From: a virus
DNA length: 64,000 nt
IMG/VR virus record: IMGVR_UViG_3300037488_003551
Span: 1 to 64,000 of that record
Strand: one strand, 5' to 3'
Positions 2,058 to 47,161 of the stretch are shown here, one piece after another (the first letter of the stretch is position 1; every line of letters begins with the position of its first letter). Position numbers and translations under genes: made by a program. Under the pieces are notes generated by a model, which was not told where the DNA came from, searched no databases, and was given only the letters and a program-made list of their open reading frames with translations.

Positions 2058-2445
2058 CACGGTTGCTCCTAACGTAAATAATGGGTTCACCCGGCGGTAG
2101 GTTTGCTTCGGATTCGTTTCGTTCGCGTGTTGTAACTTCTCCGTCTTGGGAGTATTCGTACACTATCCCCTCGAGCTGATGGCTTTCAGTCATAATTTGG
2201 GCCATTTCTTCCGGAGACGATTCAGGAGGAGGCACAGGTACTTCTTTTGGAGTCGTCAGATATTGTTTTAGGTGTGGTGGATTAGGAGGTGTTACGGGAT
2301 AGATTTGCCTATTCAAACCAAAGATGTTTAGATTTGTACCAATAATGACTCGGTCATCCGGGATAAAAGCGATATGTGTAACGTCCGCGTTCAGGGCCTT
2401 GGCAAGAAGGAGTTTGAGTTCTTCAACGGTTATAATGATTTCCAC
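2050..2445 (-). CDS. Hypothetical protein
   Basis: 131-aa ORF overlapping both neighbours in the same operon. Confidence 0.6.
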   Translation of the reverse strand: MEIIITVEELKLLLAKALNADVTHIAFIPDDRVIIGTNLNIFGLNRQIYPVTPPNPPHLKQYLTTPKEVPVPPPESSPEEMAQIMTESHQLEGIVYEYSQDGEVTTRERNESEANLPPGEPIIYVRSNRDE

Positions 2446-4474: not shown

Positions 4475-4491
4475 CCTGTCGCTCCTTACGA

Positions 4492-4498
4492 TAGAATT
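4492..4498 (+). promoter_or_regulatory. Putative -10-type promoter (TAGAATT) for the portal operon
   Basis: The same TAnAATT motif precedes several structural genes; lies in a divergent intergenic gap. Confidence 0.5.
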
Positions 4499-4534
4499 TG
4501 GTCAGTCTCGCGGACTAAAAAAGAAAGTTGAACC

Positions 4535-15590: not shown

Positions 15591-16088
15591 ATGTACCAGT
15601 ACGGATATAATGCGGCCCTGCATCAGTTGGGTTTAGAGAAGAACGCAGCTTTCTTTCCAGGAGCGGCAGCTCGATTCATGCCGAAACTCAAATCTTTTGG
15701 TAAGGCTGTCGGCACAAATCTTTTTGGACAACCTAAAAAGTTCGTAGGTGAGTTGCGGTCTGGAACGGCATTTGGTAAAGACAGTCTACTTGCAGAAGGA
15801 TTTAAAGCGCCAAAACTCTGGCAAAAAGCGCTCATGTATGGTCTTCCCGCGGCTTCAGCTGTTCAGACTTTGCGGAGTGATGACCCAGATAAAGCAGGGT
15901 CTATTGGAGGTTTAATCGGTGGTACAGCTTTAAGTACAGCTGCTTTTGGACCTTTTGGTATGCTAGGAGCGATACCTACAAGTATGGCAGGAGAATTTAT
16001 CGGTAAGCGTCTCGTACACGGTACGCAGCGTATATTGGGAGTTGGAAATCAACAGGCTCCGCAATATACTTCTTTGCAACAACGGTAA
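15591..16088 (+). CDS. Glycine-zipper putative internal-head protein with class A leader
   Basis: MYQYGYNAALHQLGLEKNAA; GGLIGG hydrophobic segment. Confidence 0.6.
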   Translation: MYQYGYNAALHQLGLEKNAAFFPGAAARFMPKLKSFGKAVGTNLFGQPKKFVGELRSGTAFGKDSLLAEGFKAPKLWQKALMYGLPAASAVQTLRSDDPDKAGSIGGLIGGTALSTAAFGPFGMLGAIPTSMAGEFIGKRLVHGTQRILGVGNQQAPQYTSLQQR

Positions 16089-26546: not shown

Positions 26547-27467
26547 ATGTCGTACAATGTTGAAACCTCTACTCATTCCGCGCAGTTCCTGAACAAGTCG
26601 TTCCTCTCCAAGGTTGAGGGCGGCCATGTGAAGGAAGCGGTCGAAGCCAGCTCGCTGTTCATTCGTGAGCGTCTTCGTCAGGCGGCAGCTGTCCGTGAAG
26701 TCATCGTCCCCCAAAGCGTGACCGAAGAGAACATCGACCGTGACGAGAGCACCGACCAGCCGAAGATCATCATCGACAAGGAGCCGAACTCAACGGCTTC
26801 TTTCGTGCAGTTCCAAGGCACCGGTCGCCGCACGTGGTTCAAGGGTCCCCGTTACTCCGTCCGCTTTGGTAAGGTCGAGTCACAGCGATTCACCAAGACC
26901 AAGGCGGAGCTCATGACCTACCGCTCCGACATTCGCAAGATTCTGTCGGACAACTCGGTCATGGATATGGCGGACGAAGAGGATCGCAAGTTCTACGAGC
27001 TCGTCGCCGCGATCATCGCCGCGAACCCGAGCGTACAGCGCACCACGGGCGCTTTCCAGAGCGGCACGTTCAAGGTTGCTTGCCAGGCGATGCTGACCGG
27101 TACGCGCAAGCGTCCTATCGGCAAGCTCCTGCTGAGCAAAGAGCGCTACATGGACGCGCTCGACCTGCCGGCGACCTCCGTCGGTGACGAGATTGCCAAG
27201 CGTCATTTTGACGAGGGCATCGAGTCCTCGCAGAAGCTCTGGGGTCTCCCCGTTGTGACGCACGTCAAGTCGGATATCTATCCGACCGACAAGGGTTGGA
27301 TTTTCTCTCCAACCACGCCGAACAACTTCCTGGGTAACTTCTTCACCCTGCAAGATGCCACTCTGTTCATCAAGCAGGAAGCAGACGTCATCTCCTTCTG
27401 GACCTACGAGTACGTTGGCCTCGGAATCGCCAACACTCTGTCCATGCAGGAAATCGTTTTCAGCTGA
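26547..27467 (+). CDS. Major capsid protein (HK97-fold, putative)
   Basis: FIRERLRQ...REVI, IIDKEP, ELMTYRSDIRKIL...D...EEDRKF, LWGLPVV, YEYVGLGIAN; strongest codon bias in the window; position after protease and scaffolds. Confidence 0.75.
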   Translation: MSYNVETSTHSAQFLNKSFLSKVEGGHVKEAVEASSLFIRERLRQAAAVREVIVPQSVTEENIDRDESTDQPKIIIDKEPNSTASFVQFQGTGRRTWFKGPRYSVRFGKVESQRFTKTKAELMTYRSDIRKILSDNSVMDMADEEDRKFYELVAAIIAANPSVQRTTGAFQSGTFKVACQAMLTGTRKRPIGKLLLSKERYMDALDLPATSVGDEIAKRHFDEGIESSQKLWGLPVVTHVKSDIYPTDKGWIFSPTTPNNFLGNFFTLQDATLFIKQEADVISFWTYEYVGLGIANTLSMQEIVFS

Positions 27468-32327: not shown

Positions 32328-35021
32328 ATGCCTCTATCTAGACCGAACACTGTCGTTTATCAGGAATATGCGGACCTCTCCGTTGTTCCCGCTACCCCAT
32401 TCTTGAACACCCTCATCGTTGGTCCTTGCTATCAGCTGCTGGACTACCTCGATGACAAGGCGGATTGCGCCGCAGGAGAATACGGTACCCTGCAAATGAA
32501 TAACCCACGCACGTCCCCGACGGCTGCGGTGGTTATCGCCACTCCTCCTGAGCTAGAAGCAGGTGCCATTCTCGAAGATAACAGCGTGAAGATTTTCTTC
32601 GATGAGGTGCAGGTCGCATTGAAAGAGGTCACGGGTACTCCTGGAGATGATGCTGGACTTTATTACATCAGCGATAATCTGTTTGCCACTGTGAATGCTG
32701 ATGGCGTACACATCGGTAAACAGTATGCGCAAGCAGGCGATACGCTCATCTGTGAAACATCGGTTACTGCGGATTTCATCAAAACCATAAAAGAATTGGC
32801 CTACACGTTTTATGGTCCGGTACTCGATTTCACAACGTGGGGAGTAGATACCGGCGACATTATTACGGTTGAGAATGATGCAGCTTCTCCTTCTCGCAAT
32901 GGTACCTACACCGTAAAAAAGAAGTATATCGTCGGAGGTTCTGTCCTCGCTACAGCCATTGAAATCGAAAATGCAGCAGCCCTAGAAGGTGACGTAGCAA
33001 ATGCGGACATCACTATCCGCTCTTCGACGGGAACTCTGCGACACACCACCATAGGTGGAGCTCCTGTTTCTTTGGGTGATTGGTGCAATCTCCGCGTAAC
33101 AGAAGATTTCTCGGCTGGACATCCGGTCAGTTGTCTCTGGCGCATCGAGCGTCAACTCAACGATGTCGAACTTGCTTCTACGGATATCACGGTGAACAAC
33201 ACCACGAAGACCGTAACCGTTAAAGCTGGCGTGACAGCAATTGTGAGTACGACCATTGGAGCCAAGCCTGTTACGTTCGCTGAGATGTACATGGAGTACG
33301 CTGCGCTGCGGCAGGACCTCCAAAACGTGGCCGAGGTTTCGTCTTCTTCCGAGGCGATTGCTCTCCTTGGAAAATACGATGCACGTAATCCGCTCTGCGT
33401 AGGTGTGCATGTAGCTCTATATAACACCACGACGCCCATCAAGGTCTATGGTCTCGCCGCGGATACGTTGGCCGGGTACACGGATTTTGTGGAGCGCACC
33501 AGTCATCTCAGCGACATCTACGCGGTGGTCCCACTGACCTACGATACGAGCGTTATCGGTTATCTCAAGGACGCGTGGGAGCGTTACGCTGATGCAGACA
33601 TCGTTCTTCAAACAGGTATTAAGCAGAAATTTCGGACGACCATCGGCGCTGTGGACCTCGTCACACAGAGCGAAGTCATCTCCGCGACCGCAGGCTCGTC
33701 CACGCTGACGAAAGCGGGAACAACTCCGGCAGGAAATTACACGCTGACTCTTTCTGGTCTTTCAGGTCAAACAGCGGATTTCAGTGCTTCTGGCGTTCTT
33801 CCGGGAGACATTGTCAATGTTAAAATTGGTGGCGTAACTGCTGGACCATTTACGGTAGCGCATGTAAATACGGCACTCATTCTTGAAACAGAAGAAGCCC
33901 TCACAGGTTTAGGTATAGCGCGTGACGCAGCCGATACTTTGGATATTACAGACCCAACAGGTATTATCCATCGTTTTACGGCTTTGGTTTATTCGGTAGG
34001 TGTCAAGGGGTTTACTCTTGGTGCATCCGTTCTCGACGCCCTTTATCTCACCCTGAGCTCTTCGACCTCCACGTTCATCACGGACGGCGTGGTCCCGGGC
34101 GACCTGCTCCAGATTCCGACCGACCCCGAGTCCACTTCTTGGACGACCTACGACACCTGGGTCATCGCAACTGTCGATAGCGAGACGCGCGTCACGGTGG
34201 TGAACGGCGGGAACAACACGGCCGACCTACAAAACGAGCTCCCGCATCTCATCAAGCGCACCGCGGCGACTGACCGTGTGGTCTCTACTAGCACGGTCTA
34301 CTTCCGCATCAAGCGCAACATGACCAAGACCGAGCAGGTCAACTACATGCTTGCGGTGGCTCAGAGCTTGGACAGCAAGCGTGCTCTTCTCTGCTACCCC
34401 AACAGCGTGGACATCACCGACCTTATCGATGGTAGTCTGACACGAACGGGTACGGACCCCGAGGTCGCCGCGGCGCAGCCAGGCTACTATCTCGCCTGCC
34501 TCGTTGGCGGCCAGACGGCGAGCCAGCCTTCGCACCAGGGCTTCACGAACCTGGGCGGCAACGGCATCGACCGCATTTACAACTCGAGTGACTACTTCAG
34601 CGAGGAGCAGCTCACCAACCTGTCGAATGGCGGCGTGTACGTCTTCGTGCAGGATGCGCCGGCCGCGCTGCCCTACACCATCCACGAAGTGACGACCGAT
34701 GTTCTCTCCCTCGAGACCGGTGAATACATGCACGTGAAGAATTTGGACTATCTCTCGATGTCTTTCCTCGAGACGCTGCGTCCCTTCATTGGCAAGTGGA
34801 ACATCACACCGGATGCTATTCAGTTCATCACGCAAGCTTTGTATGCGACCATCAACACGCACAAAACTGCATACCGCGCGAGGATTGGAGCGCCGATGAT
34901 TGACGGGACGGTACGCACCGTCTTCCAAAATACGGATGTCTCAGAAGATCGCATCGAAGCGTACGTCGACGCTGACTTGCCAACGGTCCTTAACACCCTC
35001 GGCCTACACTTGGTGGCGTGA
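32328..35021 (+). CDS. Contractile tail sheath protein
   Basis: N-terminal RPNTVVYQE..IVGP; C-terminal QGFTN, LSNGGVYVF, VTTD, E....NLDY, FIGKWNIT, PTVLN; 897 aa with insertion domains. Confidence 0.85.
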   Translation: MPLSRPNTVVYQEYADLSVVPATPFLNTLIVGPCYQLLDYLDDKADCAAGEYGTLQMNNPRTSPTAAVVIATPPELEAGAILEDNSVKIFFDEVQVALKEVTGTPGDDAGLYYISDNLFATVNADGVHIGKQYAQAGDTLICETSVTADFIKTIKELAYTFYGPVLDFTTWGVDTGDIITVENDAASPSRNGTYTVKKKYIVGGSVLATAIEIENAAALEGDVANADITIRSSTGTLRHTTIGGAPVSLGDWCNLRVTEDFSAGHPVSCLWRIERQLNDVELASTDITVNNTTKTVTVKAGVTAIVSTTIGAKPVTFAEMYMEYAALRQDLQNVAEVSSSSEAIALLGKYDARNPLCVGVHVALYNTTTPIKVYGLAADTLAGYTDFVERTSHLSDIYAVVPLTYDTSVIGYLKDAWERYADADIVLQTGIKQKFRTTIGAVDLVTQSEVISATAGSSTLTKAGTTPAGNYTLTLSGLSGQTADFSASGVLPGDIVNVKIGGVTAGPFTVAHVNTALILETEEALTGLGIARDAADTLDITDPTGIIHRFTALVYSVGVKGFTLGASVLDALYLTLSSSTSTFITDGVVPGDLLQIPTDPESTSWTTYDTWVIATVDSETRVTVVNGGNNTADLQNELPHLIKRTAATDRVVSTSTVYFRIKRNMTKTEQVNYMLAVAQSLDSKRALLCYPNSVDITDLIDGSLTRTGTDPEVAAAQPGYYLACLVGGQTASQPSHQGFTNLGGNGIDRIYNSSDYFSEEQLTNLSNGGVYVFVQDAPAALPYTIHEVTTDVLSLETGEYMHVKNLDYLSMSFLETLRPFIGKWNITPDAIQFITQALYATINTHKTAYRARIGAPMIDGTVRTVFQNTDVSEDRIEAYVDADLPTVLNTLGLHLVA

Positions 35022-35470
35022 TGCAAAACGAGTTTTACAAAGCGGGCTACAACGACGCGCTGGTGAAAATGGGAGGCTTTGGAAGCGCTATTGCCAAAGG
35101 CCTTCAGACTGCGGGCGGATGGTTAAAAGGTCTCGGAACAAAAGTGCCAGCGGGTCCTGCTCAGATGTCACTTCCTGGTATGGCCCCTGCCGCGGCAAAA
35201 CCGGGGTGGTTTGCGGGAAAAGCTCAAGGCGCAGCACAGGGCCTAGGCAATTCTCTCAACAATCTCGCAGCTGCTCCGGGACAAACCCTCTGGCAGGGCG
35301 CCGGCAACTTCGGAAAGAACATGCTCGGGATGGGTCAGGCGAATACAACAAGCGGCGTTTTGGGCCGCGGTGCCATGGGCGTTGGCCTAGTGGGTGGCGC
35401 TACGGGTGGTTTCGGAAATAGATCGCAACCGAGACCGGGACAGCTCCCCGGCCCGGGACAGATACAATAG
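35018..35470 (+). CDS. Gly-rich putative cargo protein with class A leader, between sheath and tube
   Basis: EFYKAGYNDALVKMGG; C-terminal glycine zipper. Confidence 0.55.
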   Translation: MMQNEFYKAGYNDALVKMGGFGSAIAKGLQTAGGWLKGLGTKVPAGPAQMSLPGMAPAAAKPGWFAGKAQGAAQGLGNSLNNLAAAPGQTLWQGAGNFGKNMLGMGQANTTSGVLGRGAMGVGLVGGATGGFGNRSQPRPGQLPGPGQIQ

Positions 35471-35479
35471 GAGGCTCGG

Positions 35480-36241
35480 ATGCCGCTTGGAATCACTCAT
35501 GGTCTCGGTAGCTGGAGAATCCAGCAAAACAACGTCGAGCGCCATACCGACAACGCTGCCTACACCGCAGCCAACCCGGAAGACACTCTCATTCTTGCGG
35601 GGCCTCCTCGGTTCATGGATGTGATGCAGGCCGAGGACAATGGCGTAGGAAGCCTCCTGGCCATCGGTATGACGCAGACCTTCCAGTTCACGAGCCAAGT
35701 CCCGCTGCAGCCAATGCAGGCCATCGGTTCGTCGCGCCTCTTCTTCACGCGTGGCAAGAGCCAGACCTCGTGGAGACTCGGCCGACTCCTGACGAACGGT
35801 CGTAACCTCCTGCGCGTGCTCTACCACAACGCGGTGGCCGCGGGCCTGAACGTCGGAGCTCTGGATGAACCCCCGGTGCCGGCCGGACAGGGAACCCAGA
35901 ACACCACCTTCTACGCTAACCTCGACTCCGAGCTCTTCTACGTGCCGTTCGGCATCGCAGTGCTTTTCAGAGACCGGGCCAAGGATCTCCTCGGCGCGTT
36001 CTACTTCGAGCTCTGCATGGTGAACATGTACACGCTCGGATTCACCATCGGACAGAACATGGTGATGGAGGACATCAGCGGACTCTGCGACCGCGTTGTG
36101 CCTTTCTCTCCCAGCACGCTGCAGGCTGTCCCCGGACTCGACCGAAAAGCCCTCGACGAAGTCATCGGCTTCACGTCGGCTGGCGACCCCAGTGTTCCGA
36201 CCGACTGGATTACTGGCATGGACGACCTGCCCCCTGGCTGA
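35480..36241 (+). CDS. Tail tube protein (putative)
   Basis: AIGM.Q.F, AIGS.R.FF, SELF.VPFG, FYFELC, GQNMVME; follows the sheath; GC3-rich. Confidence 0.7.
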   Translation: MPLGITHGLGSWRIQQNNVERHTDNAAYTAANPEDTLILAGPPRFMDVMQAEDNGVGSLLAIGMTQTFQFTSQVPLQPMQAIGSSRLFFTRGKSQTSWRLGRLLTNGRNLLRVLYHNAVAAGLNVGALDEPPVPAGQGTQNTTFYANLDSELFYVPFGIAVLFRDRAKDLLGAFYFELCMVNMYTLGFTIGQNMVMEDISGLCDRVVPFSPSTLQAVPGLDRKALDEVIGFTSAGDPSVPTDWITGMDDLPPG

Positions 36242-36277
36242 TTCCTTTTTCTTTTGCCCCCGTGCTATGCTTTTTGC

Positions 36278-37816
36278 ATGGACGACTCAAAAGAAATCTC
36301 CAAAACAATACGCTTCGGAAAAACTCCAATATCCAGCTCCCCCTTTTCTTCTGGCGGAAAAGTACTTGGGACTATCGAGTCTTATAACGACAGTACTAAA
36401 ACGTACACCGTCGTTACGCAGGGTAATAAAAGAAATCCAAATGCGCTCGGTGGTCGCCTGCAGGGAATTCCCCGAAAGCTCTCTCACTCTGGAGACCAAG
36501 TGGTTCTCAGTCCGGAGACCACGGTCATCGTCGACTTCGAGCTCGGCATTCCTTATATCGATGGCGTCTTACCGCAGGCCGCCACTTCTTCTGCGGCGTA
36601 TTCCGTAGCGCCCAATTTTGGGACGACAGCAGGAAGCGGAGCGTCAGCGGTTGGGGATACCGGAGGAAATTATCGAACGGCTAATTCACCTACAGGAATG
36701 CTCCCGGGTGACCAAGTTCTCGCAGGGGAAGATGGCAACTATGTCGCGGCACTACGTGGAAAAATCTCCACGCTCCATGGCAGCGAGCGCGCTCAAGTTC
36801 TCGTCTCGGGCTTGCATGACCTCGTCCGCGTCGTCTGCGAAAACTACGAAAATTTTTCATCTTTTGGAAATCTCGAGATAAAAAACAAAGATGGAAGGAG
36901 CTCTCTGTCCTACCGAGGTGGAGCTGACCAGGCGTCTCAGTCTGGCGGCGAGCTCGAGGCCTGGACTTTTCGTTTGGATATCGGCGACGTTGGTAATATC
37001 TTTGACATGCGGGTGACCTCTCCGGATAATAGCAAAACTTTTGCGCGCATAAAGATGTCTCCCGACGGTTTTTTGGAAATCTTCGGAGAGCTCGCTCGCG
37101 CAGATAGCACTGCTGGTGACCGTTATACGACGACCGGTGGCACCCACTACATCCGTACGTCCGGTAATACGCGAGAAGAAATTCGTGGAGCCTCTGCAAT
37201 AAACATTCAAGGTGGTTCCACCGAGAGCGTTGCAGCTAACCGTACCGCAAATGTCGGTATGGACGATGTTGTTTCTGTGAATAGAAACGAAGTAAAAAGT
37301 ATCGGGGCTCAGCAAATCACCACAGTCATGGGAGGTCTCCCTCTTGATGCCAAGCCTACGGATAAAGCTAAAGAAGTCCGCGTAGTTAACGGAAGTTATC
37401 TCATCGAAATAGGGAGCCCAAAAGACGGTGGTGTTCCTTCTGCAATGTCGGGCTATAAAGTCTACGTGCACAACGGAGCTATTATCATCGGCGAGAATCC
37501 GATGCTCCCTGCTACACAATGCAGCGTAAATCTGAGCACGTTAAAACCGAGTTCTATTGGACTGGGTTGCATCGTCCCCGGACCCTGGCCCGAGGCCTCA
37601 ATGAATCCTCCCACGGGTTCGGCGATGGTCTATGAAAAGTGGCTCATCCTTTTCAATGCCCTCATCACGGCTTTGGATAATCACCAGCACGTCGCGACCT
37701 ACGGCGGAGGTCCAACGCTCTCTACTCTTCCTGGAACACCTGGAGCTTACTTTCAAGGAATCACGGGTAGCCTCACCGCAGCCGTGAAAAGTTTGAAGGT
37801 TAAGATAGGTGCCTGA
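36278..37816 (+). CDS. Baseplate central spike/hub (gp5/VgrG-like) protein
   Basis: N-terminal OB-like region, Gly-spaced beta-helix repeats (TTTGGTHYIRTSGN...), C-terminal HQH. Confidence 0.6.
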   Translation: MDDSKEISKTIRFGKTPISSSPFSSGGKVLGTIESYNDSTKTYTVVTQGNKRNPNALGGRLQGIPRKLSHSGDQVVLSPETTVIVDFELGIPYIDGVLPQAATSSAAYSVAPNFGTTAGSGASAVGDTGGNYRTANSPTGMLPGDQVLAGEDGNYVAALRGKISTLHGSERAQVLVSGLHDLVRVVCENYENFSSFGNLEIKNKDGRSSLSYRGGADQASQSGGELEAWTFRLDIGDVGNIFDMRVTSPDNSKTFARIKMSPDGFLEIFGELARADSTAGDRYTTTGGTHYIRTSGNTREEIRGASAINIQGGSTESVAANRTANVGMDDVVSVNRNEVKSIGAQQITTVMGGLPLDAKPTDKAKEVRVVNGSYLIEIGSPKDGGVPSAMSGYKVYVHNGAIIIGENPMLPATQCSVNLSTLKPSSIGLGCIVPGPWPEASMNPPTGSAMVYEKWLILFNALITALDNHQHVATYGGGPTLSTLPGTPGAYFQGITGSLTAAVKSLKVKIGA

Positions 37817-37842
37817 GCTATAATTTTTTAGGAGGATTTCTC

Positions 37843-38118
37843 ATGCGAAAAACAGCTGAAGATATTGCGCAGAAGGTGCTAGAAAAGAATGCACTATCTG
37901 TAGCACATGTTCGAAAGGTTCTTTTAAACGCTGACCCTAAAAGAATTCAAAATATGAGGTAGGATAGTCCGGTGATGCGTGTTGCGACAAAAGGTGGGAT
38001 AGGAGAAAGTGAGAGGTTCTTACAGGAATTAGAGCGGCGCCGTTTGGGTTTACCTCCGGTAGATGACTTGGCGGACATTGAAAGGTACGCACGGTCTATT
38101 AAATCTGCTCCGTGGTGA
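37843..38118 (+). pseudogene. Class B-leader gene interrupted by in-frame TAG at 37960-37962 (nonsense allele, readthrough, or two tiny ORFs)
   Basis: TATAATT, AGGAGG SD, then MRKTAEDIAQKVLEKNA; the frame stays open 51 codons past the TAG. Confidence 0.5.
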
Positions 38119-38187
38119 ACTTAAGCAATCAGCCTATAATTCTCAAAAAGTGGGCGCTGACTGCCCCGCATTAAAGGAGTTTTTTCC

Positions 38188-39024
38188 ATGCCACGAGTAA
38201 GAGTCAACGCCCTCATCGGTGCCGTGCATATTCAAGACCCGCAGCCTGCTACTGGCGGTTTGTCCGTGACCGCTGCAGCTGGGTCGTATAAAATCTTCGA
38301 CTGCAATTGGGATGTGTTTCAACGTATCGCTCCGCAGATTGCCGAGCTCGAGACGCTAGGCGCTGCGACCTTCACTGTTTCCGGTGGCACGGATAACTTC
38401 TGGGCGCAAGAGGGCGACCTTCCAGGCATGCCGCGCATCGACCGCGTGTCGAAGCATGACCTTGCGCTGACCGGTGAAGCCAGCATCGTCGTCGAAGGCC
38501 TCTACTTCTTAGGCGGGCAGAGCTTCGCGACCACGCGTCTCGACTACACGACCGCGAATACCGACCTCGTCATCTCCGCGCGCACCCCCGGCTACTGGGG
38601 CAACGCCCTCTCGGCTATCGTTTCTGACGACGGCGGTGGCGGCCTGGCCATCTCCGTGGTCGGCGGCGTGCAGCTGAAGATCGACCTCGGTGGTGCGACG
38701 CCCAATGCCACGACCATCGCTGCAGCTGTGAACGCGAGCGCTACCGCGAAGCTCCTTTTCAAAGCAGTGGTGGACGGTACCGGCGCCGGTCTCCCCACGG
38801 TCAAAGCTTCTCAGACCTTGGCAGGTGGCGAAGGCCCGGGCCTGGCTGTGACCTGCGCGGGCGTGGCTTGCGATGTCCTCACGATCACGGACGCACACCC
38901 GAGCTATTCGATGACCATCGCTATTCCGACCATGGCCGGCGTGTCAGCTTCCGGAGAAGGCGTGAACCTCGAGCTCCGGTCGGGTGGGAAGATTGCCACT
39001 GTTTCTCTGCAAATCGCTCCGTGA
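38188..39024 (+). CDS. Virion structural protein (sheath-insertion-like beta domain)
   Basis: ARTPGYWGNALS..IAAAVNA..LAGG motif; GC3-rich; own TATAATT promoter. Confidence 0.55.
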   Translation: MPRVRVNALIGAVHIQDPQPATGGLSVTAAAGSYKIFDCNWDVFQRIAPQIAELETLGAATFTVSGGTDNFWAQEGDLPGMPRIDRVSKHDLALTGEASIVVEGLYFLGGQSFATTRLDYTTANTDLVISARTPGYWGNALSAIVSDDGGGGLAISVVGGVQLKIDLGGATPNATTIAAAVNASATAKLLFKAVVDGTGAGLPTVKASQTLAGGEGPGLAVTCAGVACDVLTITDAHPSYSMTIAIPTMAGVSASGEGVNLELRSGGKIATVSLQIAP

Positions 39025-39042
39025 TAAGAAAGGACTCTCTCC

Positions 39043-39807
39043 ATGAAAAAGACAGCTCACCAAATTGCTAGTCACGTATTAGCAAAAGTTGCCGCTATTA
39101 CACCGGAAGAAATCGCAGCCGGATTGGCTGGCAATAAGATGCGCGATATCCCCCAAGAAGAGATTGACAGCCTAACGCAAGAGTACGGCGATAAGGCTTA
39201 TAAAGAACGCGCAAGCGCTCCTTGGTGGGGTGGTGGACTTGGTGGGGCTCTCGGTGGATTGGGAGGATTAGCGTTAAGCCAGGGTCGTCCTGCAGGTGGA
39301 CTCATTGGCTTAGGGATTGGCGGGGGACTGGGAGCTCTTCTCGGGCATGGAGTACGCACGGGTGCACGGTCTCAAGCGCGTGACCTGGGATCGACAGTCG
39401 GAGGAATTGCACAGTCAGGTCGTATTCCTTACGACTTTCCTGGACGCGTCCGAACAGATGACCTTATACCGTACGCTAAGGGTATTCAAGGAACTCCTGA
39501 GACCATGAATTTTCAGGACGAACAAGCCATCAGGGACCGGCTGACAAACCGGCTCATGCTTATGCGCGGAGCAGAAGGCGCAATTACTGGGGGTCTAACG
39601 AGCGCTCTGGCTAACCGAGATCGTGAAGACGCATCAGGGGATGCCGTACTCAGCGCCGCGCTTCAAGGTGGGATGGGAACATTGCGCGGACGCTCGGAAG
39701 CGCGTGAGATGGCGCGCAAAGTCCTAGACCTAAAATCTCGTGGGTATGGGACGCTGTCTGATCGTTACTACAACGACGCCCTTGACCCAGAAATCCTGGG
39801 CTATTAA
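39043..39807 (+). CDS. Glycine-zipper cargo protein with class B leader
   Basis: MKKTAHQIASHVLAKVAAITPEEIA; GGLGGALGGLGG. Confidence 0.65.
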   Translation: MKKTAHQIASHVLAKVAAITPEEIAAGLAGNKMRDIPQEEIDSLTQEYGDKAYKERASAPWWGGGLGGALGGLGGLALSQGRPAGGLIGLGIGGGLGALLGHGVRTGARSQARDLGSTVGGIAQSGRIPYDFPGRVRTDDLIPYAKGIQGTPETMNFQDEQAIRDRLTNRLMLMRGAEGAITGGLTSALANRDREDASGDAVLSAALQGGMGTLRGRSEAREMARKVLDLKSRGYGTLSDRYYNDALDPEILGY

Positions 39808-39831
39808 GCCAAGTTCTCCTAGAATTAGGGC

Positions 39832-42402
39832 ATGAAAAAGTCAGCCCTTCAAATCGCAGATGCAGTAAGAGCCAAACCTGAAGAACCTAGCGCGTTACGG
39901 AGGGCTGCACCTTGGCTTACCGCGGCCGGGACTGGAGCTCTAGGGTATGGCCTTTTGCGCCGAAGGAGCTTCGCTCCTATTGGGACACAACTGCGGTCTC
40001 TCCAAGAAGCGGCAAAGAATAAGCCTTTTAGTATAGCGACTTCGGGTGGAACGCCTTGGGCACAAAAAATTCGCTCCATGATTATGGGTGCTCCTGTCCA
40101 TACGACCGGAGAAAAGGTGAAAGGAACGGTTCTTCATCACACACCAAACCCTAAAGGTGGGGGTGATATTAATATAAATGCGGGAAATATTACAGACGCT
40201 CTTCAAGACAAAGCTGTCTTTGATCGTGTTATGCGTGAAGGTGTTGGTGCGGGACCTGGAATGGCTTCTTCTCTCCCAAATACAATGCGTCTTGATGAAG
40301 CACTAAAACGCGTAGGAGGAGACCCAAAGCGCTTAAAAGAAATCTATCCAGATTTTATGTTAAAAGCCCGAAGCGAATCAATGGGAAGGGGTATTTTTAA
40401 ATCGTTAGATGACCCCGGCGTAAATGAAGCTATTCAAAATCCAAGTCAATTTATCTTCCAAGAGAAGATGCCCATAAAGAATGAGTTCCGCGTACATACT
40501 ATAGATAACGAGCCGTTTACGGCGACGCACCGTTTTATGCCCAATAAAACGTTACGTGGTTTATGGAATCGAGTGGCTGGTGGAGGAGGCGGAGCTTTCG
40601 TTCCTCTGGTGGGAAAGAGACGAAGAGCTCTCCATGATTTTATTAGGCAGAGCACGGCGCATCTAAAACCAGCGGACGGTAAAAGCCTCTCAGACGTAGG
40701 AGAGTCTATGCATGTTGCCTGGGACGTTGCGGAGCTTCCTGATGGCACGTTCAAGCTTATTGAAGCCAACCCTGTACCGGGTACTATGATGAACCCGGGT
40801 ATTGCACAAAAACTTCAAAAACAAATAACTGGAAGATGGTCTAGACCCGTTGCAGCTTTAGGAGGAACTGCTTTAGCAGGCACATCTGGAGTTGCCGCTA
40901 ATAAGATTTTAGGCGGTCCTTCAAACAATGTAGCGGAGACATCTCCTATGAAAAAAACAGCGGACCAAATCAGTTGGAGCGTTCTGTTAAAGGTCGCAGC
41001 CGGAGCGGAAGGTAATCCCGAAATATGGCGCAAAATGGTAGACCGTATCGCTAAAAGCAAAGGTATACCAAAACCTACTGATGCTCAATTCCAAGAGATG
41101 TTTCCTAAGGATTTTGCAACCTCGGGAAAAACATTAGAAGATGCCATACAAGGTTCTGCTTGGTTTAAGCAGGGCACTTCAAGTGGCATGGGAGCTCAAG
41201 GTAGCAATTGGAATCGGGGATCTAGCGGTGGCGCTTGGGGACCAGGAGCAGATGATGCAGTCGCTGCTACGGAAGCTGCGCGCCAAAGAGAGTTGATGGC
41301 TTTAAGTCTTGTGAGCGGCATGCATAATGTAATGGGTTTAGGCGCGGCTGGAAGTGGAATTGGTACGGCTGCTACTGGGATTCATAGCACAACACAGGCT
41401 AAAACTCCAGAGGAACGCGCAGCTGTTTTAGGCCTGAGTGGAGGACTCGCAGGTTATTCTGGAGGGTCTGCTTTCGATAATTTTAGAAAAGCAAAATTAT
41501 ATAAAGACCTTCAAAATGCTATGTCCAATCCTACTGGTCCGAATTATTCGCAACGAGTAACAGATATATCTAATAAAATTATGAGAAAGCCTAAAGCATT
41601 TTCTCCTCAGCGTATTGGCGGATTAGCAGGTGTTGGTCTGGGTCTAGGCGGAGCTGCACTTTGGAATTATTTAGCCAGAGATAAACCTATGAGTAAGGCA
41701 GCGGCTATTACACCAGAAGAAATAGCTACAGGTTTAAGCGGACGAGCTGCACGTCCAGAAATTACGCTAGCGGAAATCATGGAACTTCGTAACAAACTTC
41801 GCCAAGAAGAATATGCTAAGCGGAGAGGGACACCTATAAAGTGGGGTATAGGTGGTGGCTTATTAGGCGCTGCTATTGGCGCTCTTTCGAGTAGAAAAAA
41901 GGGCTTAGGTAAATTACCCAGAACTTTAATTGAGGCAGGATTAGGAGCCGGTTTAGGCGGCTTTTTAGGAGAAACAAGTCGCAGCTTGGACAGTGATGCG
42001 ATGCTAGACCGCGGAAATATTCTAGGAAGAATAGCTAGAACAGGAAACTTGAAGCTAGTAGCGGATTCAGAAAATGCAAAAGATTACGCTCCCTTCGCAA
42101 TTGGAAGTCAACCAGGCGCTAAACCCTTAACGGAAGAGGAGACACACGCTCTTCGTAATCAAGTGTTAAAACAACGAAGTTTAGGCGGCGCAGTTAGGGG
42201 TGCTCCTTTCGCAGCTCTATCCGGAATACTCGGCGCCGCTGCTAAAGCTCCTCCTGGGGCCATAGCAGAATCTATGGCTTTCCCGCTTTTAACTGGAACG
42301 TACCTCGGAGCAAATAGAGCAGTAGACCAATCAAATACGTTAGTAGATTTGCACAACAGGGGGTATGGCGACCTAGCACGCATCATCCAAAAAGATTGGT
42401 AG
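39832..42402 (+). CDS. Three-module polyprotein: ATP-grasp (RimK-like) ligase plus two glycine-zipper modules
   Basis: FMLKARSESMGRGIF, IFQEKM, EFRVH, AWDV, LIEANPVPG (ATP-grasp); internal modules paralogous to the 42410 and 39043 ORFs. Confidence 0.75.
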   Translation: MKKSALQIADAVRAKPEEPSALRRAAPWLTAAGTGALGYGLLRRRSFAPIGTQLRSLQEAAKNKPFSIATSGGTPWAQKIRSMIMGAPVHTTGEKVKGTVLHHTPNPKGGGDININAGNITDALQDKAVFDRVMREGVGAGPGMASSLPNTMRLDEALKRVGGDPKRLKEIYPDFMLKARSESMGRGIFKSLDDPGVNEAIQNPSQFIFQEKMPIKNEFRVHTIDNEPFTATHRFMPNKTLRGLWNRVAGGGGGAFVPLVGKRRRALHDFIRQSTAHLKPADGKSLSDVGESMHVAWDVAELPDGTFKLIEANPVPGTMMNPGIAQKLQKQITGRWSRPVAALGGTALAGTSGVAANKILGGPSNNVAETSPMKKTADQISWSVLLKVAAGAEGNPEIWRKMVDRIAKSKGIPKPTDAQFQEMFPKDFATSGKTLEDAIQGSAWFKQGTSSGMGAQGSNWNRGSSGGAWGPGADDAVAATEAARQRELMALSLVSGMHNVMGLGAAGSGIGTAATGIHSTTQAKTPEERAAVLGLSGGLAGYSGGSAFDNFRKAKLYKDLQNAMSNPTGPNYSQRVTDISNKIMRKPKAFSPQRIGGLAGVGLGLGGAALWNYLARDKPMSKAAAITPEEIATGLSGRAARPEITLAEIMELRNKLRQEEYAKRRGTPIKWGIGGGLLGAAIGALSSRKKGLGKLPRTLIEAGLGAGLGGFLGETSRSLDSDAMLDRGNILGRIARTGNLKLVADSENAKDYAPFAIGSQPGAKPLTEEETHALRNQVLKQRSLGGAVRGAPFAALSGILGAAAKAPPGAIAESMAFPLLTGTYLGANRAVDQSNTLVDLHNRGYGDLARIIQKDW

Positions 42403-42409
42403 AAAAGAT

Positions 42410-43408
42410 ATGTACAAAACTGCCGAACAGATCAGTTGGAATATCCTACTAAAAGCGGCTGCGAGTGAAGGTGGTAACCCTGAACTGTGGCGCAAGATGG
42501 TAGACCGTATAGCCAAAAGTAAGGGAATGCCAGCGCCTACTGACGCCGAGTTTGCAGAGATGTTTCCTCCTGATTTCGCGACTTCCAGTAAAACAATGGA
42601 AGACGCCATCCAGGGGTCCAAGTGGTTTAACAAGGCAAATGCAGGTCCATCTGCGTCCTCTCCGAGTTCTAATCCGTACGCGGATTACAATCCACGTTCG
42701 AGTTCAAGTTCGAGACAATACTCGTCTCCATTTGATGACTTTTTTTCAAGGTATAACCAGCAGGCAAGACAAAATTCGAATTGGTGGGATAAGACGTGGG
42801 ACGCAGAGAGTCAAGCACGAGCCGAAGCACGTAAAGCTGAGCAGCAAGCGAGTGACGCGCAATGGGAAGAAAGAAGACAGCGGCAAACTCGCGAGTCCGC
42901 AGACCGGGAAAAAGCATACCAAGAAAAACAAAAAGGTTATAGCCGCAGTACCTCGGCATCGACCGAGTCAAATAAGTACTATGACCAAGCTCGCGGTATG
43001 AAGAACCGTGCCGCCGCATATACGGCAGGGCTCCCAACTGCATTGGGTATGAGCGGATTAGCCATTGGAGCTGCGACTGAGGACAAAGATAAACGTAATG
43101 TAATTATGGGAGGTACAGGCGCAGGCGCAGGGGCCTCTATGGGATATGGAAGTGTCCTCGAAGAGAACGCTCGGCGGTTTAGGAATGCTATAAAACCTAT
43201 TCCTTTTTCTGTTGATGAAGGCTTTCAAGTTATGAAGCCTTACAATAAAATGAAAGCTACTCCCCATACAGTTATGGGTGGACTTCTTGGATTAGGTTTG
43301 GGTCTGGGTGGGTCTCACTTGATACAAAAAGCCTTCTATGACCAAAAGAAGACCCCTATGCGAAAAGCCGCTTCTGAAATTGCGGCATCGATTCTTAGAA
43401 ATTATTGA
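42410..43408 (+). CDS. Glycine-zipper cargo protein with class B motif at both ends
   Basis: MYKTAEQISWNILLKAAA...; C-terminal MRKAASEIAASIL. Confidence 0.65.
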   Translation: MYKTAEQISWNILLKAAASEGGNPELWRKMVDRIAKSKGMPAPTDAEFAEMFPPDFATSSKTMEDAIQGSKWFNKANAGPSASSPSSNPYADYNPRSSSSSRQYSSPFDDFFSRYNQQARQNSNWWDKTWDAESQARAEARKAEQQASDAQWEERRQRQTRESADREKAYQEKQKGYSRSTSASTESNKYYDQARGMKNRAAAYTAGLPTALGMSGLAIGAATEDKDKRNVIMGGTGAGAGASMGYGSVLEENARRFRNAIKPIPFSVDEGFQVMKPYNKMKATPHTVMGGLLGLGLGLGGSHLIQKAFYDQKKTPMRKAASEIAASILRNY

Positions 43409-44823
43409 GTCGTATCTCTCTGTAGAAGTCGCATTAATTGATTATTCAAATCTTTTTTGTTCTTCGACATATCTGCTAATACATCTTCTACTCCAATTGG
43501 GTCCTTTTTTGTTATTCTCTGCCAAAGGTTGGCTTGTGGATGCGTGACGTATTGCTGGACAAGAACGTTACGCTTGTCCTCAGGTAAATCTGTGTGTGAA
43601 CCATGCCGAATCGCACGTCCAATAACCTGGTCGAGTTTTTCTTCATTCCAGTGAGGCTCTAAAACTTGGACCAGCCGCGTCCCTTTTAAGTCCAGACCTT
43701 CGCCACCTGCGGATGAGAGGAGCAAGGCCCGCAATTTCCCAGCGTTGTAATCGTCGATGGCAGCCTGGCGCTCTCCTTTTGGTACTGACCCCGTAAAAAG
43801 TTTGCTAGGAATTCCCTGCGATTCAAGTTGCTGCTGGTATTCGGATAGGTTGTTTAGATAATTGGAATATACGATGGCTTTGGAAGTAGGGTCAGACTTA
43901 ATACGCTTAGCTAGTTCTTGAACCGCGTACATTGTTTTGGGAGAGGCTTCGCCACGAACATACTTATTAGTGGAACCTGATATCTGTCTAGCCTGCGATT
44001 CAAATTTATTAAACGCTGAAAGTTCTTTCCCAGCAGGCAAAGCGCCATGCTCCAACTTTTTACGCAGACTTCGTGGAAGTGTTCCCCATGCGGCAGCGTG
44101 TAATCGCGTTTGCAGATCCGACATAGGAACGCGTACACGCTCGTCCATACGCGTTGGGAAATCCCCACTCGTATTGTCTTGATAATCTACCCACTTTTGG
44201 AGGACGCCCTTGAGCTCATCCGTATTTTTCAATACAGGCTTCATAGGCTTTCCTCGAAGGCGGTACCACCAACTTGGATTTCTTGGGGGTTTACTGATAT
44301 ATTTTTCGTTGAAAGTAGCTCCCACAGGAAGAACAGATTTACCTGCTGCGATGTTGACAAGCGGAGCTATATCGGAAGGCCTGTTATATACAGGCGTTGC
44401 AGTCAAAAGCATCCGTTTAGCCGCGGGATATTGCGCGAGAAGTTTATTAAGACCTGTAGATGTCTCGCGAGCTTTATGCGCTTCGTCTACAACTAAAAGG
44501 TCAGAGGGGATTGTTTCACCTGATAGCGCATCTCTCTGCTGACTTCGTACCTGGATATTATTAGGACCTTTGAGATGCTTGGCAATTTCCTTTTGGTAGT
44601 TGGGAACCAAAGATGCGGGAGCTAAGACGGTCGTATTTCCACTTTGTCCCGCAGCTGCCGCGAGGGAACTTAACGTTTTTCCTGTGCCTAACCCGTGTGC
44701 TACAACCAGCCCCGGCTGTTTTTTAAGACGGTCTACTACGCGCTGTTGATGCGGGAGTAACTGCGTTAAAACTTCCGCTGCAGTTTTATTGAATATTCCA
44801 GAAGGAATGGTCTTCGGTTTCAT
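43402..44823 (-). CDS. Second SNF2-family helicase, with N-terminal KTAA site
   Basis: HGLGTGKT, DEAH, LTATP, GGEGLDL, QVIGRAIRHGSH; leaderless start after TAAAATT. Confidence 0.9.
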   Translation of the reverse strand: MKPKTIPSGIFNKTAAEVLTQLLPHQQRVVDRLKKQPGLVVAHGLGTGKTLSSLAAAAGQSGNTTVLAPASLVPNYQKEIAKHLKGPNNIQVRSQQRDALSGETIPSDLLVVDEAHKARETSTGLNKLLAQYPAAKRMLLTATPVYNRPSDIAPLVNIAAGKSVLPVGATFNEKYISKPPRNPSWWYRLRGKPMKPVLKNTDELKGVLQKWVDYQDNTSGDFPTRMDERVRVPMSDLQTRLHAAAWGTLPRSLRKKLEHGALPAGKELSAFNKFESQARQISGSTNKYVRGEASPKTMYAVQELAKRIKSDPTSKAIVYSNYLNNLSEYQQQLESQGIPSKLFTGSVPKGERQAAIDDYNAGKLRALLLSSAGGEGLDLKGTRLVQVLEPHWNEEKLDQVIGRAIRHGSHTDLPEDKRNVLVQQYVTHPQANLWQRITKKDPIGVEDVLADMSKNKKDLNNQLMRLLQRDTTQ

Positions 44824-44837
44824 GTCCCAATTTTACT

Positions 44838-45098
44838 TCAACTGGGACCTTGGCTTCCCCCGTATCCGCTTTGAACTTTTGTCGCTTCAAAATTTCCATG
44901 CGTGTGCATGTACCCAGCCCTTTGCGCTTTACATCCGGGGTATGATGGAATGCAAACAGAACTCAACTTTGGGGCCACGAGGAAGACGGTGTGCATATCG
45001 CCTTTGCAGTCCGGACAGACAAAAGAAGCCGTATCGTTGTCGACGAGCTCCTCGAGCTTGTTGTTGCACGTGGAACATTCAAAGTCTTTCATCCGCAT
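44838..45098 (-). CDS. FmdB-family zinc-ribbon protein
   Basis: M..KDFECSTC...E...CPDC. Confidence 0.7.
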   Translation of the reverse strand: MRMKDFECSTCNNKLEELVDNDTASFVCPDCKGDMHTVFLVAPKLSSVCIPSYPGCKAQRAGYMHTHGNFEATKVQSGYGGSQGPS

Positions 45099-45157
45099 TT
45101 TCAGGCCTTCTTTCTGAATCTGAGTATGCTTATTATGTTACCTGTAGGAGGTCCACT

Positions 45158-45316
45158 ATGTCTATACTGCTCACCATTCTTCTCATCCTACTCATTCTCA
45201 GTATTTTTGGTGGGGCGTTGAGTGGTGGCCACATCAGCTGGTCTCCGATTGGAATTATTCTTTTAATCTTCCTCATTTTAATCCTCACTGGGAACGCGGG
45301 GCATCTCCGACTATGA
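45158..45316 (+). CDS. Small two-TM membrane protein (DUF3309-like)
   Basis: MSILLTILLILLILSIFGGAL...SPIGIILLIFLILILTG; AGGAGGT SD. Confidence 0.6.
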   Translation: MSILLTILLILLILSIFGGALSGGHISWSPIGIILLIFLILILTGNAGHLRL

Positions 45317-47161
45317 CGATGGCTGCAAGTCGTCTCCGAATGGTATCTCAGCTGCCACTGGAACGGTGCAAAGTTTTAAAGGCTGGAGATCTGCATCGAA
45401 CGTTGGGACTTCGATTTCGACCGTCGCATTCAAGTCGGCACCAAACGTCGCTTCTTCCAGGCCTTCGATAGCTTCTCCGAGCGAATCGACCAGAGACTCT
45501 ATCTCGGTACTCCCGCTGGCAAAGATAGCTCGGAGAAGAGCGGTAGAGGCCTGCACTCGAGCCTTCGGTCCACCGGCCATGAGAATGACGCCCATGACGT
45601 ACTCGTCGCCACGGTGGAACGGCGGGGCGTTGGGGAAGCCTTCTGCGAGGGAGTTTGCCAGGTCCGAGAGGAGGTACTGGTTCCCACCTCCACCTTCAAA
45701 CGCCCGTATGTAGACTCCGCCGAGCTTGTTCGGGAGCGCTAGGAGATTCGTTAGTGCCTGTATTTGTAGGAGAATATCCGATACGATTGTCTCGTACCTG
45801 AGAATCTCCGCTTTCAAGAACGCCACGTAGTCCTTGAGCATGTTCCCCGGAACTTCGAGCCTAGCGGCCAAGGCCTCGATGTATCCCGCGACCATCCGGA
45901 CGAGGTACGCAAAGGGCGGGAAGAGCTCGGCGACCGAGGGCGTCCGGACCCAATCCGGGGGAGTGCTATCGGGATACGTGGGGAAGGGGTAGACCTGAGC
46001 TTTATTGGAGATGTCCCAGTACTGGAGGGTTGTCCCTGCTCCAGCTACCCATCCTCCGCCTTCTGCCAGAATGTTCGACAGTCCGTCATACGCTTCAAGC
46101 TGCCAGGCGATAGCGAAGTGATAGAGGTCGCCGTCCGCCACAGGCAAGTCTCGCGCCACGTACGAATTCTCCCCAAGCTTGAATGGTGCCTCGCTCACCA
46201 CCCAAATATCCGTGCCGCGTTTGGTAGAAGAGGAGATGTCTCGCGTTCCAATGAGCTCTACAACGTTATTAGCTGTAGACGCTTGGATATTATTTCGAAT
46301 CGCAAAAATGGCTCGACGCCTTGGAATGAGAATCGTATTACCCAGGTCTGGAAGGGTTGCGAATGGGACATCCAAAGTGTCCCACTTCAAAAGCACACTC
46401 AGCTTTTTATCCTTGCCTGGTTTTGTGAGCGCGTAAGCCGTTAAGTTTTCCGGCTTGGGAACTTTTGTCTCGGTGGTCGACTTGAAAAGACTTCCGAACA
46501 TCCCTTTTAAGCGCCACATGTCGTCCAAGAATCCGAGAGGGTCGATATTCGTCCCGAGCATCATGACCAACCCACCAACCCAATCCGCATCACTCATGAA
46601 CTGAGGGCGATTACGGTCTCCCTTGTCTTGGAGTGACGCGGCCACCTGTCTATAAAACCCAGCATTGCCTCCGCTATAACGATTTACGTTGACGAGGAAC
46701 TTTCGATAGCTATCGGTCATAGGCTGGTCGGTCGGCGCCGGGGCGAAGAGCTTACTCGCAGGCGGGGTCAAATCCCCGAAGCCCGCGAAGGTCGTATTAA
46801 ACCTTTTGCCGTTTGGGATGAAGATAGTGTATAGGCCGGCATCCTCTAGGAGACCTTCTAGGAAAGCTTTTACCTGGTCAATAATCTTTTTGATAAGAGC
46901 TGCAGCCGCATCTTTCAATCCAATGATGAGATTGGCAATCACTTCAAGGAGGCTAACGACGGCATTCAGAACCTTACGTAACTCGTCAATAATATTAGCT
47001 ATTTTTTCGATAGGACCAAAGTCTGGAAGAGCAAGCTCGAGCTTTCCCCAAGCAGCCGTAGGAGTCCCGGGTTTGCTCTCCCAAAAAAGACTCTGTGACT
47101 TTTGGAGTTCGGCAGCTTGCTTGGCTTTCCAGGCATCAATTTTTTCTTGTTGCGTTGCCAT
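45311..47161 (-). CDS. Large hypothetical protein, possibly baseplate-associated
   Basis: 616 aa; helical termini with a central beta domain; no catalytic motif recognised. Confidence 0.5.
   Translation of the reverse strand: MATQQEKIDAWKAKQAAELQKSQSLFWESKPGTPTAAWGKLELALPDFGPIEKIANIIDELRKVLNAVVSLLEVIANLIIGLKDAAAALIKKIIDQVKAFLEGLLEDAGLYTIFIPNGKRFNTTFAGFGDLTPPASKLFAPAPTDQPMTDSYRKFLVNVNRYSGGNAGFYRQVAASLQDKGDRNRPQFMSDADWVGGLVMMLGTNIDPLGFLDDMWRLKGMFGSLFKSTTETKVPKPENLTAYALTKPGKDKKLSVLLKWDTLDVPFATLPDLGNTILIPRRRAIFAIRNNIQASTANNVVELIGTRDISSSTKRGTDIWVVSEAPFKLGENSYVARDLPVADGDLYHFAIAWQLEAYDGLSNILAEGGGWVAGAGTTLQYWDISNKAQVYPFPTYPDSTPPDWVRTPSVAELFPPFAYLVRMVAGYIEALAARLEVPGNMLKDYVAFLKAEILRYETIVSDILLQIQALTNLLALPNKLGGVYIRAFEGGGGNQYLLSDLANSLAEGFPNAPPFHRGDEYVMGVILMAGGPKARVQASTALLRAIFASGSTEIESLVDSLGEAIEGLEEATFGADLNATVEIEVPTFDADLQPLKLCTVPVAAEIPFGDDLQPSS

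Follow-up and report, generated by a model that had tools for sequence, protein, structure and literature searches.

The internal-protein locus of phage T4 is hypervariable between related phages. A leader directs T4 proteins into the prohead, where the head protease cuts it off, and these proteins reach the host together with the DNA (PMC5512222, PMC10052503). In phage SPN3US the prohead protease trims proteins of N-terminal propeptides 20-254 residues long, in some cases at several sites, and short N-terminal propeptides of 20-24 amino acids (aa) are among the parts cut off (PMC10052503). Phages and conjugative elements also encode polyvalent proteins, in which a single chain combines 2-15 effector-type domains (Iyer et al. 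2017, PMC5512222). Virions of Salmonella phage Arash contain the RNA polymerase beta and beta' subunits, beta being the most-detected protein, as well as the SNF2 helicase gp217, for which 38 unique peptides were recorded (PMC10585845). R2K enzymes, which are ATP-grasp ligases, have already been predicted to modify host proteins in phages (PMC4431377, PMC7824862). Here we describe three genes, A, B and C, at positions 39043-43408 of a window of 64,000 nucleotides (nt), the whole stretch of DNA that was analyzed. The window is the first 64 kb of IMG/VR virus record IMGVR_UViG_3300037488_003551, which is 172,892 bp long and rated 97% complete. Gene B is a fusion of three units, two of which have stand-alone paralogues in A and C. 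Judged from sequence and gene context, the products of all three genes probably travel inside the virus particle and are delivered into the host by injection.

Units of genes A, B and C

Gene B (856 aa, 39832-42402) consists of three fused units and lies, like A and C, on the + strand. Unit 1 (residues 1-372, 39832-40947) contains an ATP-grasp ligase domain, unit 2 (residues 373-619, 40948-41688) is a paralogue of gene C, and unit 3 (residues 620-856, 41689-42402) is a paralogue of gene A. Gene A (254 aa, 39043-39807), the stand-alone paralogue of unit 3, is built of a leader that we call type 1 (residues 1-15), the sequence KVAAITPEE, glycine-zipper segments and a DLKSRGYG end. Unit 3 begins with KP-MSKAAAITPEE, in which only the tail of the leader is left, and continues with glycine-zipper segments to a DLHNRGYG end. 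Unit 2 has a complete internal type-1 leader (SP-MKKTADQISWSVLLKVAA), followed by a conserved 60-aa head, a low-complexity middle and the glycine zipper GGLAGVGLGLGG. Gene C (332 aa, 42410-43408) has a type-1 leader and is paralogous to unit 2 over its full length. Its last part is a stub of 16 aa (43358-43405, PMRKAASEIAASILRNY) with a match to the junction of units 2 and 3. The stub is kept (PMKKAASVIAVNVLTI) in L003 and L005, two of the relative loci collected from IMG/VR and metagenomes.

A first-pass annotation of this DNA had read the 856-aa open reading frame (ORF) at 39832-42402 as three units, and both the three-unit structure and the limits of the ORF are borne out. It had also called the first 75 or so residues of unit 2 nearly identical to the start of the ORF at 42410. 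The similarity is strong, with 72% identity between C residues 1-78 and B residues 373-450 (E 8e-36, protein level), which is less than near identity. Nor is it limited to the N-terminus; in an alignment with the relatives, the similarity between C and unit 2 spans their whole length, including the GGLxGLGLGLGG zipper and the K-x-P-M-x-K-A-A junction. Since C matches unit 2 through this junction, the 16-residue tail of C corresponds to the joint between units 2 and 3. The end-to-end paralogy claimed for unit 3 and the ORF at 39043 was confirmed. A residues 13-239 and B residues 620-849 exhibit 31% identity (E 1e-8, protein level), and the two align from end to end with the common ends AAITPEEIAxGL and DLxxRGYG. 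In the end-to-end alignment of A and unit 3, K-x-A-x-I-T-x-E-E ... D-L-x-x-R-G-Y is invariant.

Self-comparison reveals the repeats at the DNA level as well as in the proteins. A repeat of 238 nt joins 40947-41184 to 42409-42646 with 71% identity, and a block of 35 nt occurs at 39091 and 41701 with 80% identity. Only 42% of the third codon positions in the 238-nt repeat are identical, indicating that the duplication giving rise to unit 2 and C is old and has been kept by selection; recent gene conversion between the two is ruled out by the same figure.

Every unit contains uncharged Gly/Ala/Leu segments of 18-25 residues, with hydropathy peaks of 0.9-1.4. None of the three proteins has a match in Pfam or PHROGs at default thresholds. 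Unit 3 scored 18.3 bits against Pfam Gly-zipper_YMGG (E 0.0019), below the cut-off of 28.9. The Gly-zipper lead from the Atlas reached 0.88, which is below the reliable range, and all leads from the ESM Atlas were under 0.9.

Unit 1 is made up of a type-1 leader, a hydrophobic helix, the ATP-grasp ligase domain, a second hydrophobic helix and a linker to unit 2. The linker, residues 361-372, is probably flexible, since its predicted local distance difference test score (pLDDT) is about 42-55. Unit 1 has no above-threshold match in Pfam and no match in PHROGs at default settings. A profile of 44 homologues searched against the PDB matched ATP-grasp enzymes in 10 of 10 cases (TTLL7, Ddl, microviridin ligase, cyanophycin synthetase). 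The AlphaFold model of unit 1 computed with the alignment of these 44 homologues has a pLDDT of 92 and a predicted template modelling score (pTM) of 0.86; it was used in place of a model from a four-sequence alignment, which was unusable at pLDDT 43. Foldseek returned at least 500 PDB matches with E <= 0.001 for this model, and the 33 top-ranked matches listed are all ATP-grasp proteins. The top matches are ArgX/LysX, Ddl, PurK and PsnB, with E from 1e-10 to 1e-8, the best being ArgX 3vpb at 1.5e-10.

The residues expected of an ATP-grasp active site are conserved. K178, D298 and N313 are invariant in 44/44 homologues, as are Q210, E218, R220 and R234. Position 311 is E in 41/44 and D in 3/44, and K127 is present in 43/44. 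The catalytic set K127/K178/D298/E311/N313 is thus intact. Unit 1 displays the ATP-grasp fold together with the Lys and D...E-x-N signature, and its active site looks intact. The profile matches, the predicted structure with its Foldseek matches and the invariant residues together indicate that unit 1 is an ATP-grasp enzyme, as the first-pass annotation had proposed.

Membership of unit 1 in the R2K clade is not established: the Pfam score falls short of the threshold, the last strand reads E-x-N, and only half of the sequences have the second basic residue. At a loose threshold all four close homologues gave sub-threshold R2K_3 matches (best E 4e-4). Unit 1 itself scored 17.4 bits against R2K_3, short of the Pfam gathering cut-off of 26.3, and a distant member of the family, P0058, passes both R2K models (41.7 and 34.7 bits). 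In the R2K.3 family ExGD replaces ExN in the last strand (PMC4431377); unit 1 and its homologues have E311-A-N313 with the N invariant. R2K enzymes have a second conserved Lys/Arg close behind the strand-2 lysine; among the homologues of unit 1, an Arg at +2 from K178 occurs in only 22/44 aligned sequences. The conserved K127 may be the linker lysine that R2K enzymes lack.

Leaders, relatives and genome setting

The type-1 leader is 15 aa long, MKKTAxQIAxxVLxK, forms an amphipathic helix and is usually followed by K-x-A-A. A search with the pattern M-[KR]-K-[TS]-A-x-x-I-[AS]-x-x-V-L located six copies between 37843 and 43408, all on the + strand: on an ORF of 39 aa, at the starts of A, B and C, at B residue 373 and at the C-terminus of C. 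The internal copies are preceded by Pro and keep their Met (SP-MKK, KP-MSK, TP-MRK). A second leader, Y-x-x-G-Y-x-x-A-L-x-x-L-G (GY..AL..LG), starts the ORFs at 15591, 16139, 35018, 52960(-) and 53463(-) and is also found in the C-terminal part of a LigD-like ORF. It is carried by at least six further proteins. In both classes, then, one short leader is found on late proteins that are otherwise unrelated.

Most leaders of both classes are followed by K-x-A. The first-pass annotation had placed a KxA-like junction at the start of each unit of B, which is correct for units 2 and 3, as well as for A and C, and wrong for unit 1. In each type-1 unit a Glu lies 17-23 residues beyond the leader Met; thus a cut after Glu, of the T4/phiKZ type, fits as well as one at K-x-A. 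The Glu-ending motif of the phiKZ type fits only some of the junctions (GAE, ASE). Only 21-33 of 48 nt are identical between copies of the leader-coding DNA, a level that does not support the idea that homologous recombination still takes place at the leaders. Judged by eye, the core of the leader is too polar (H, Q, S, K) for a Sec signal peptide.

The 39-aa ORF (37843-37962, + strand) has the type-1 leader MRKTAEDIAQKVLEK at its start and a strong AGGAGG ribosome-binding site. It stops at an in-frame TAG (37960-37962), and the frame stays open for 51 further codons, to 38118. The ORF could be a leader gene broken by a nonsense mutation, a read-through gene or a minimal leader peptide. The 370-nt stretch that contains it is missing from L003 and L004. 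In the rest of the genome the type-1 leader is found only at 92-94 kb, on three proteins adjoining a NUDIX enzyme. The NUDIX enzyme has an internal type-2 leader (L013 3277-4326), and an ORF at L013 4342-5280 has an internal type-1 leader and a C-terminal stub. A protein of this region (93,258-94,223 of the record, L013 5259-6224) combines a type-1 leader with a HELGH zincin motif and glycine-rich segments. Pfam gives no match for it, and it is a candidate for the peptidase that would process the proteins bearing leaders.

Homologues of B with similar length are rare; 5.8 billion clustered proteins yielded only four, all of them fused. Three layouts were observed in a syntenic context, bounded upstream by the gp5-like gene and a 278-aa gene and downstream by genes of 86 and 616 aa. 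In the present phage the order is A, the fused unit 1-2-3, C and an SNF2 gene. L003 and L005 have the fused unit 1-2-3 followed by C, with A and the SNF2 gene absent. L004 has A, then unit 1 alone as a 374-aa gene, then a unit 2-3 gene, with C absent; the unit 2-3 gene is preceded by a ribosome-binding site (AAGGAAGGA) of its own and overlaps unit 1 at an ATGA. The proteins P0008 (374 aa) and P0009 (365 aa) also represent unit 1 alone, and P0008 had no match when queried against viral contigs. Gene A has at least 10 stand-alone orthologues with 48-93% identity.

The context of the stand-alone unit 1 genes, which comes from one metagenome scan, indicates the direction of change. Among the distant loci, L006, L010 and L011 have unit 1 as a gene of its own, and in L006, L011 and L012 it stands alone behind four tandem small genes, with all five genes carrying the second leader. 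Separate genes are thus the older state and B the derived one. The comparison of loci shows that unit 1 was ancestrally a stand-alone gene and that B arose by in-frame fusion, in which a complete internal leader was kept. The first-pass annotation was right that the same units exist both separately and fused, as unit 1 alone (L004, P0008), as a unit 2-3 gene (L004), as A for unit 3 and as C for unit 2. Its proposal that the repertoire changes by duplication and fusion also agrees with the data, and the three layouts of the close relatives reveal fission and loss in addition. Module order, for which it had suggested a comparison of related genomes, differs between close relatives, and so does the state of fusion.

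Two further features of these loci were recorded. L004 has an extra 167-aa gene with a type-1 leader (4111-4614) between a 253-aa protein and the gp5-like spike gene, and no counterpart of it was found in the present genome by tblastn (E > 0.1). Three phages have the same 12 nt (TAGAATTAGGGC) ahead of gene B or unit 1, and their proteins are only 55-77% identical. The conserved stretch before the start lies at 39817-39831 in the window, 5986-6000 in L003 and 7986-8000 in L004, and it may be a translation or transcription signal. A scan of 35000-45400 for promoters and terminators performed no better than on shuffled sequence.

The wider unit 1 family is also prone to fusion. An exhaustive search identified 89 representatives, and domain mapping was applied to 92 proteins, namely the representatives and the close homologues found earlier, all of which have the unit 1 domain. 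About 29 of the 92 carry at least 70 extra residues on one or both sides. The fused partners include InPase (PF18823), LigD_N with DNA ligase, SNF2 with a C39 peptidase, SNF2 alone, NUDIX and ABC1/protein kinase. P0010 and P0011 have an internal type-2 leader directly before unit 1, indicating that the leader travels with the module in independent lineages.

Other tags and joints occur among the distant homologues. Many stand-alone unit 1 homologues from other metagenomes (P0026, P0029-P0031, P0035, P0041, P0048, P0052, P0055) start with a third leader, V-R-F-I-R-x-H-G-R-v-v-P-I(-r), which is unrelated to the two leaders of this phage. Five distant unit 1 polyproteins of 1000-1400 aa (P0072, P0079, P0080, P0092, P0093) exhibit a repeated junction, NTIEGLxxG ... 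TDFGSGW, which may be the inter-module joint of another lineage; in P0072 and P0093, ABC1 or protein-kinase domains are also present.

Genes A, B and C form the end of the + strand structural block, near the gp5-like spike (36254-37816). The block also holds a protein at 22608-24689 whose only match is the PHROG 'head maturation protease', with none in Pfam or among PDB sequences. A probable major capsid protein of 306 aa at 26547-27467 has no match in PHROGs or Pfam, and its N-terminus resembles that of Arash gp226 (307 aa). The window further contains a two-gene multisubunit RNA polymerase, with the LigD-like enzyme between the two halves. By the protease-like protein, the nearest cultured relatives are Vibrio phages D69, D181 and D148 and Salmonella phage Arash (31-40% identity).

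Downstream, an SNF2-type helicase gene (43402-44823, - strand; Pfam SNF2-rel_dom and Helicase_C) runs opposite to gene C and shares 7 nt with its end. The helicase displays 37% identity to gp217, which is abundant in virions of Arash, and is likely co-cargo. The gene is absent from the corresponding place in L003, L004 and L005, and is thus a lineage-specific insertion. A second SNF2 gene lies at 2423-4474 (-).

Delivery of the units and competing explanations

We propose that A, B and C are a late-gene cluster of an Arash-like, RNA-polymerase-carrying phage, assembled from portable modules. The modules would be the leader helix, the ATP-grasp peptide/protein ligase of unit 1, two glycine-zipper families (unit 2 with C, unit 3 with A) and short flexible linkers. 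The leader would be an address, a processing tag or both, loading the proteins into the virion in the manner of the capsid-targeting sequence of the T4 internal proteins and Alt. Cleavage of the fused chain would take place at the leaders or directly behind them. The enzyme would be the head maturation protease (22608-24689) or else the HExxH protein with a leader encoded at about 93.3 kb, and the pieces would be injected with the DNA. After injection the glycine-zipper units would act at the host membrane, and the ATP-grasp ligase would modify a host or phage protein. With a tag of its own on every unit, fusion or fission would be nearly neutral, which would explain the shuffling. The cargo reading draws on the location of the genes among the structural genes, on the presence of the same leaders in soluble nucleic-acid enzymes, on the polyvalent-type partners of unit 1 and on the flexible linker between units 1 and 2. 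Removal of short propeptides in SPN3US is a precedent, and the RNA polymerase and gp217 in Arash virions give indirect experimental support. Processing of a polyprotein, with steps taking place inside the capsid, is in our view a reasonable model, to which we assign a probability of about 0.5.

Several observations weigh against this model. K-x-A is missing after the unit 1 leaders (AKPEE here, EKIEAP in L003, GTQPEP in L004) and after several others, and it is difficult to see how the leader copy that ends C could serve as a propeptide. No peptidase domain was detected by Pfam or PHROGs in A or C, nor in B itself. Searches of Pfam, PHROG and PDB sequences do not place the head protease in a family with known specificity, and the capsid protein at 26547-27467 has no obvious long propeptide or N-terminal delta domain against which a cleavage motif could be calibrated. 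No homologue of B was detected in 50,697 cultured phage records by tblastn with B and one homologue carrying the third leader. Uncharged Gly/Ala/Leu segments such as these could just as well belong to proteins in the membranes of the infected cell.

The C-terminal copy is better accommodated if B enters the particle and then the host as one intact 90-kDa chain, as the virion RNA polymerase of N4 does. B would then be an uncut multidomain virion protein of the polyvalent type, whose leader helices dock or link by binding a common partner (the scaffold, the portal or the tail lumen) and are not cleavage signals. The leader-like stub of C, kept in L003 and L005, cannot be a propeptide and speaks for an uncut chain, as do the unit 1 leaders lacking K-x-A, the lack of a peptidase domain in B and the unprocessed delivery of several polyvalent proteins (PMC5512222). 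We nevertheless consider it rather doubtful that B stays uncut, since in relatives each of the units functions as a gene of its own too, and the internal leader, down to its Pro-Met-Lys-Lys start, is conserved no less strictly than those at N-termini. The linker between the units is predicted to be flexible, and short propeptides resembling these leaders are cut in SPN3US and T4. Separate units could also be made with no proteolysis at all, as nested products of one mRNA, if the ATGs at 40948 and 41689 were independent starts. A GGAG lies 9-13 nt upstream of ATG 40948, and the Met at the start of unit 2 is kept in all fused forms. However, no Shine-Dalgarno sequence precedes the unit 2 Met in L003, and the unit 3 junction has no start codon in L003 and L005, where it is TTA-GAT (Leu-Asp), and reads AKKVAM in L004. 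Pro-Met-Lys/Arg-Lys is also kept in the C-terminal stub of C, where a start would yield a peptide of 16 aa, showing that the Met belongs to the leader motif. As the internal starts are not conserved, the fusion appears to be translated as one chain; internal initiation is an unlikely source of the units, and an account by nested products without proteolysis seems to us very improbable.

The remaining alternative places the proteins outside the virion. A, B and C would be late membrane proteins of the infected cell, possibly with a role in envelope remodelling, exclusion or lysis timing, and the leader would be an amphipathic helix lying on the membrane surface. The uncharged segments of 18-25 residues in each unit and the weak matches to Gly-zipper_YMGG agree with a membrane location, and relatives in R2K.3 are often annotated as membrane proteins (PMC4431377). 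Yet the hydropathy peaks reach only 0.9-1.4, and the same leaders occur on the LigD-like and NUDIX proteins, soluble nucleic-acid enzymes that have no reason to be at a membrane. The fusion of unit 1 homologues to SNF2, ligase and InPase domains and the position of the genes inside the structural block near the gp5-like spike argue in the same direction, and we regard membrane proteins of the infected cell as unlikely.

The processing model can be extended, tentatively, to a plug-and-play cargo system. It is possible that interchangeable address tags, of which at least three leader classes are found across the relatives, define what is loaded into the virion and mark the cut sites. Modules might then be added, fused, split or swapped without loss of delivery, and the cargo delivered into the host envelope might include an ATP-grasp protein ligase and glycine-zipper proteins.

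If the leaders are both loading and cutting signals, the injected proteome of a large group of uncultured sediment and freshwater phages would become readable from sequence, the free fusion and splitting of cargo genes would be explained, and short tags would be available for loading foreign proteins into phage particles. The best structural matches of the predicted ATP-grasp ligase add amino acids to protein C-termini, which raises the possibility that the host is rewired at injection. If the chain stays whole or never enters the virion, the locus would instead be a case of ordinary domain shuffling among paralogous late genes.

Comparison with known systems

The first-pass annotation had likened B to the polyproteins of eukaryotic viruses. 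One trait is common to both, a single ORF with units that are also independent genes. It is not the nearest comparison, however; the capsid-targeting leaders of T4 and the polyvalent proteins of phages are closer.

The likeness to T4 IPI-III and Alt lies in a short N-terminal leader common to otherwise unrelated late proteins, a host-modifying enzyme among them, and in genes that are clustered and vary between related phages. The leader sequence here is unrelated to that of T4, at least two leader classes exist in one genome, and a third is found in relatives. The leaders of the present phage also occur internally and at a C-terminus, the units are fused in one ORF, and the system is known from sequence alone.

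The polyvalent proteins resemble the present ones as multi-module proteins of phages with portal and terminase, with predicted packaging and injection and rapid shuffling of domains (PMC5512222). Several domains typical of such proteins, namely InPase (PF18823), SNF2, NUDIX, LigD-type and peptidase domains, are found fused to unit 1 homologues. In contrast, B has three modules, of which one is a recognisable enzyme domain and the others are glycine-zipper modules, and it has neither an in-chain zincin (MPTase) nor another peptidase. Most of the effector-type enzymes here are separate leader-tagged genes and not parts of one giant protein. Neither of the two mentions of ATP-grasp in PMC5512222 concerns the unit 1 family; both refer to RNA ligases. 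The plug-and-play arrangement, if it exists, would be set apart both from the single capsid-targeting sequence of T4 and from polyvalent proteins that contain a protease.

Phages of the phiKZ type, represented by SPN3US with its gp53/gp54 paralogue families and gp245 protease, are likewise large phages with a virion RNA polymerase and paralogous ejection proteins. There is no sequence similarity to them, and the parts cut off in SPN3US are propeptides, whereas those proposed here are independent functional units. The R2K/RimK-type enzymes (CDC123, LysX/ArgX) have in common with unit 1 the ATP-grasp fold and an intact Mg/ATP site, and the best matches of unit 1 are ligases acting on protein C-termini. 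Unit 1 differs in being flanked by two hydrophobic helices and a leader, and in falling below the Pfam thresholds for R2K.

New here are the full paralogy of C with unit 2, the six copies of the leader, the layouts in relatives, and the other leaders and fusions in distant homologues. Compared with the known kinds, the locus appears to differ in the absence of an in-chain peptidase, in leaders that are internal or C-terminal, in having several leader classes that seem interchangeable, and in a putative cargo that combines an ATP-grasp enzyme with glycine-zipper proteins.

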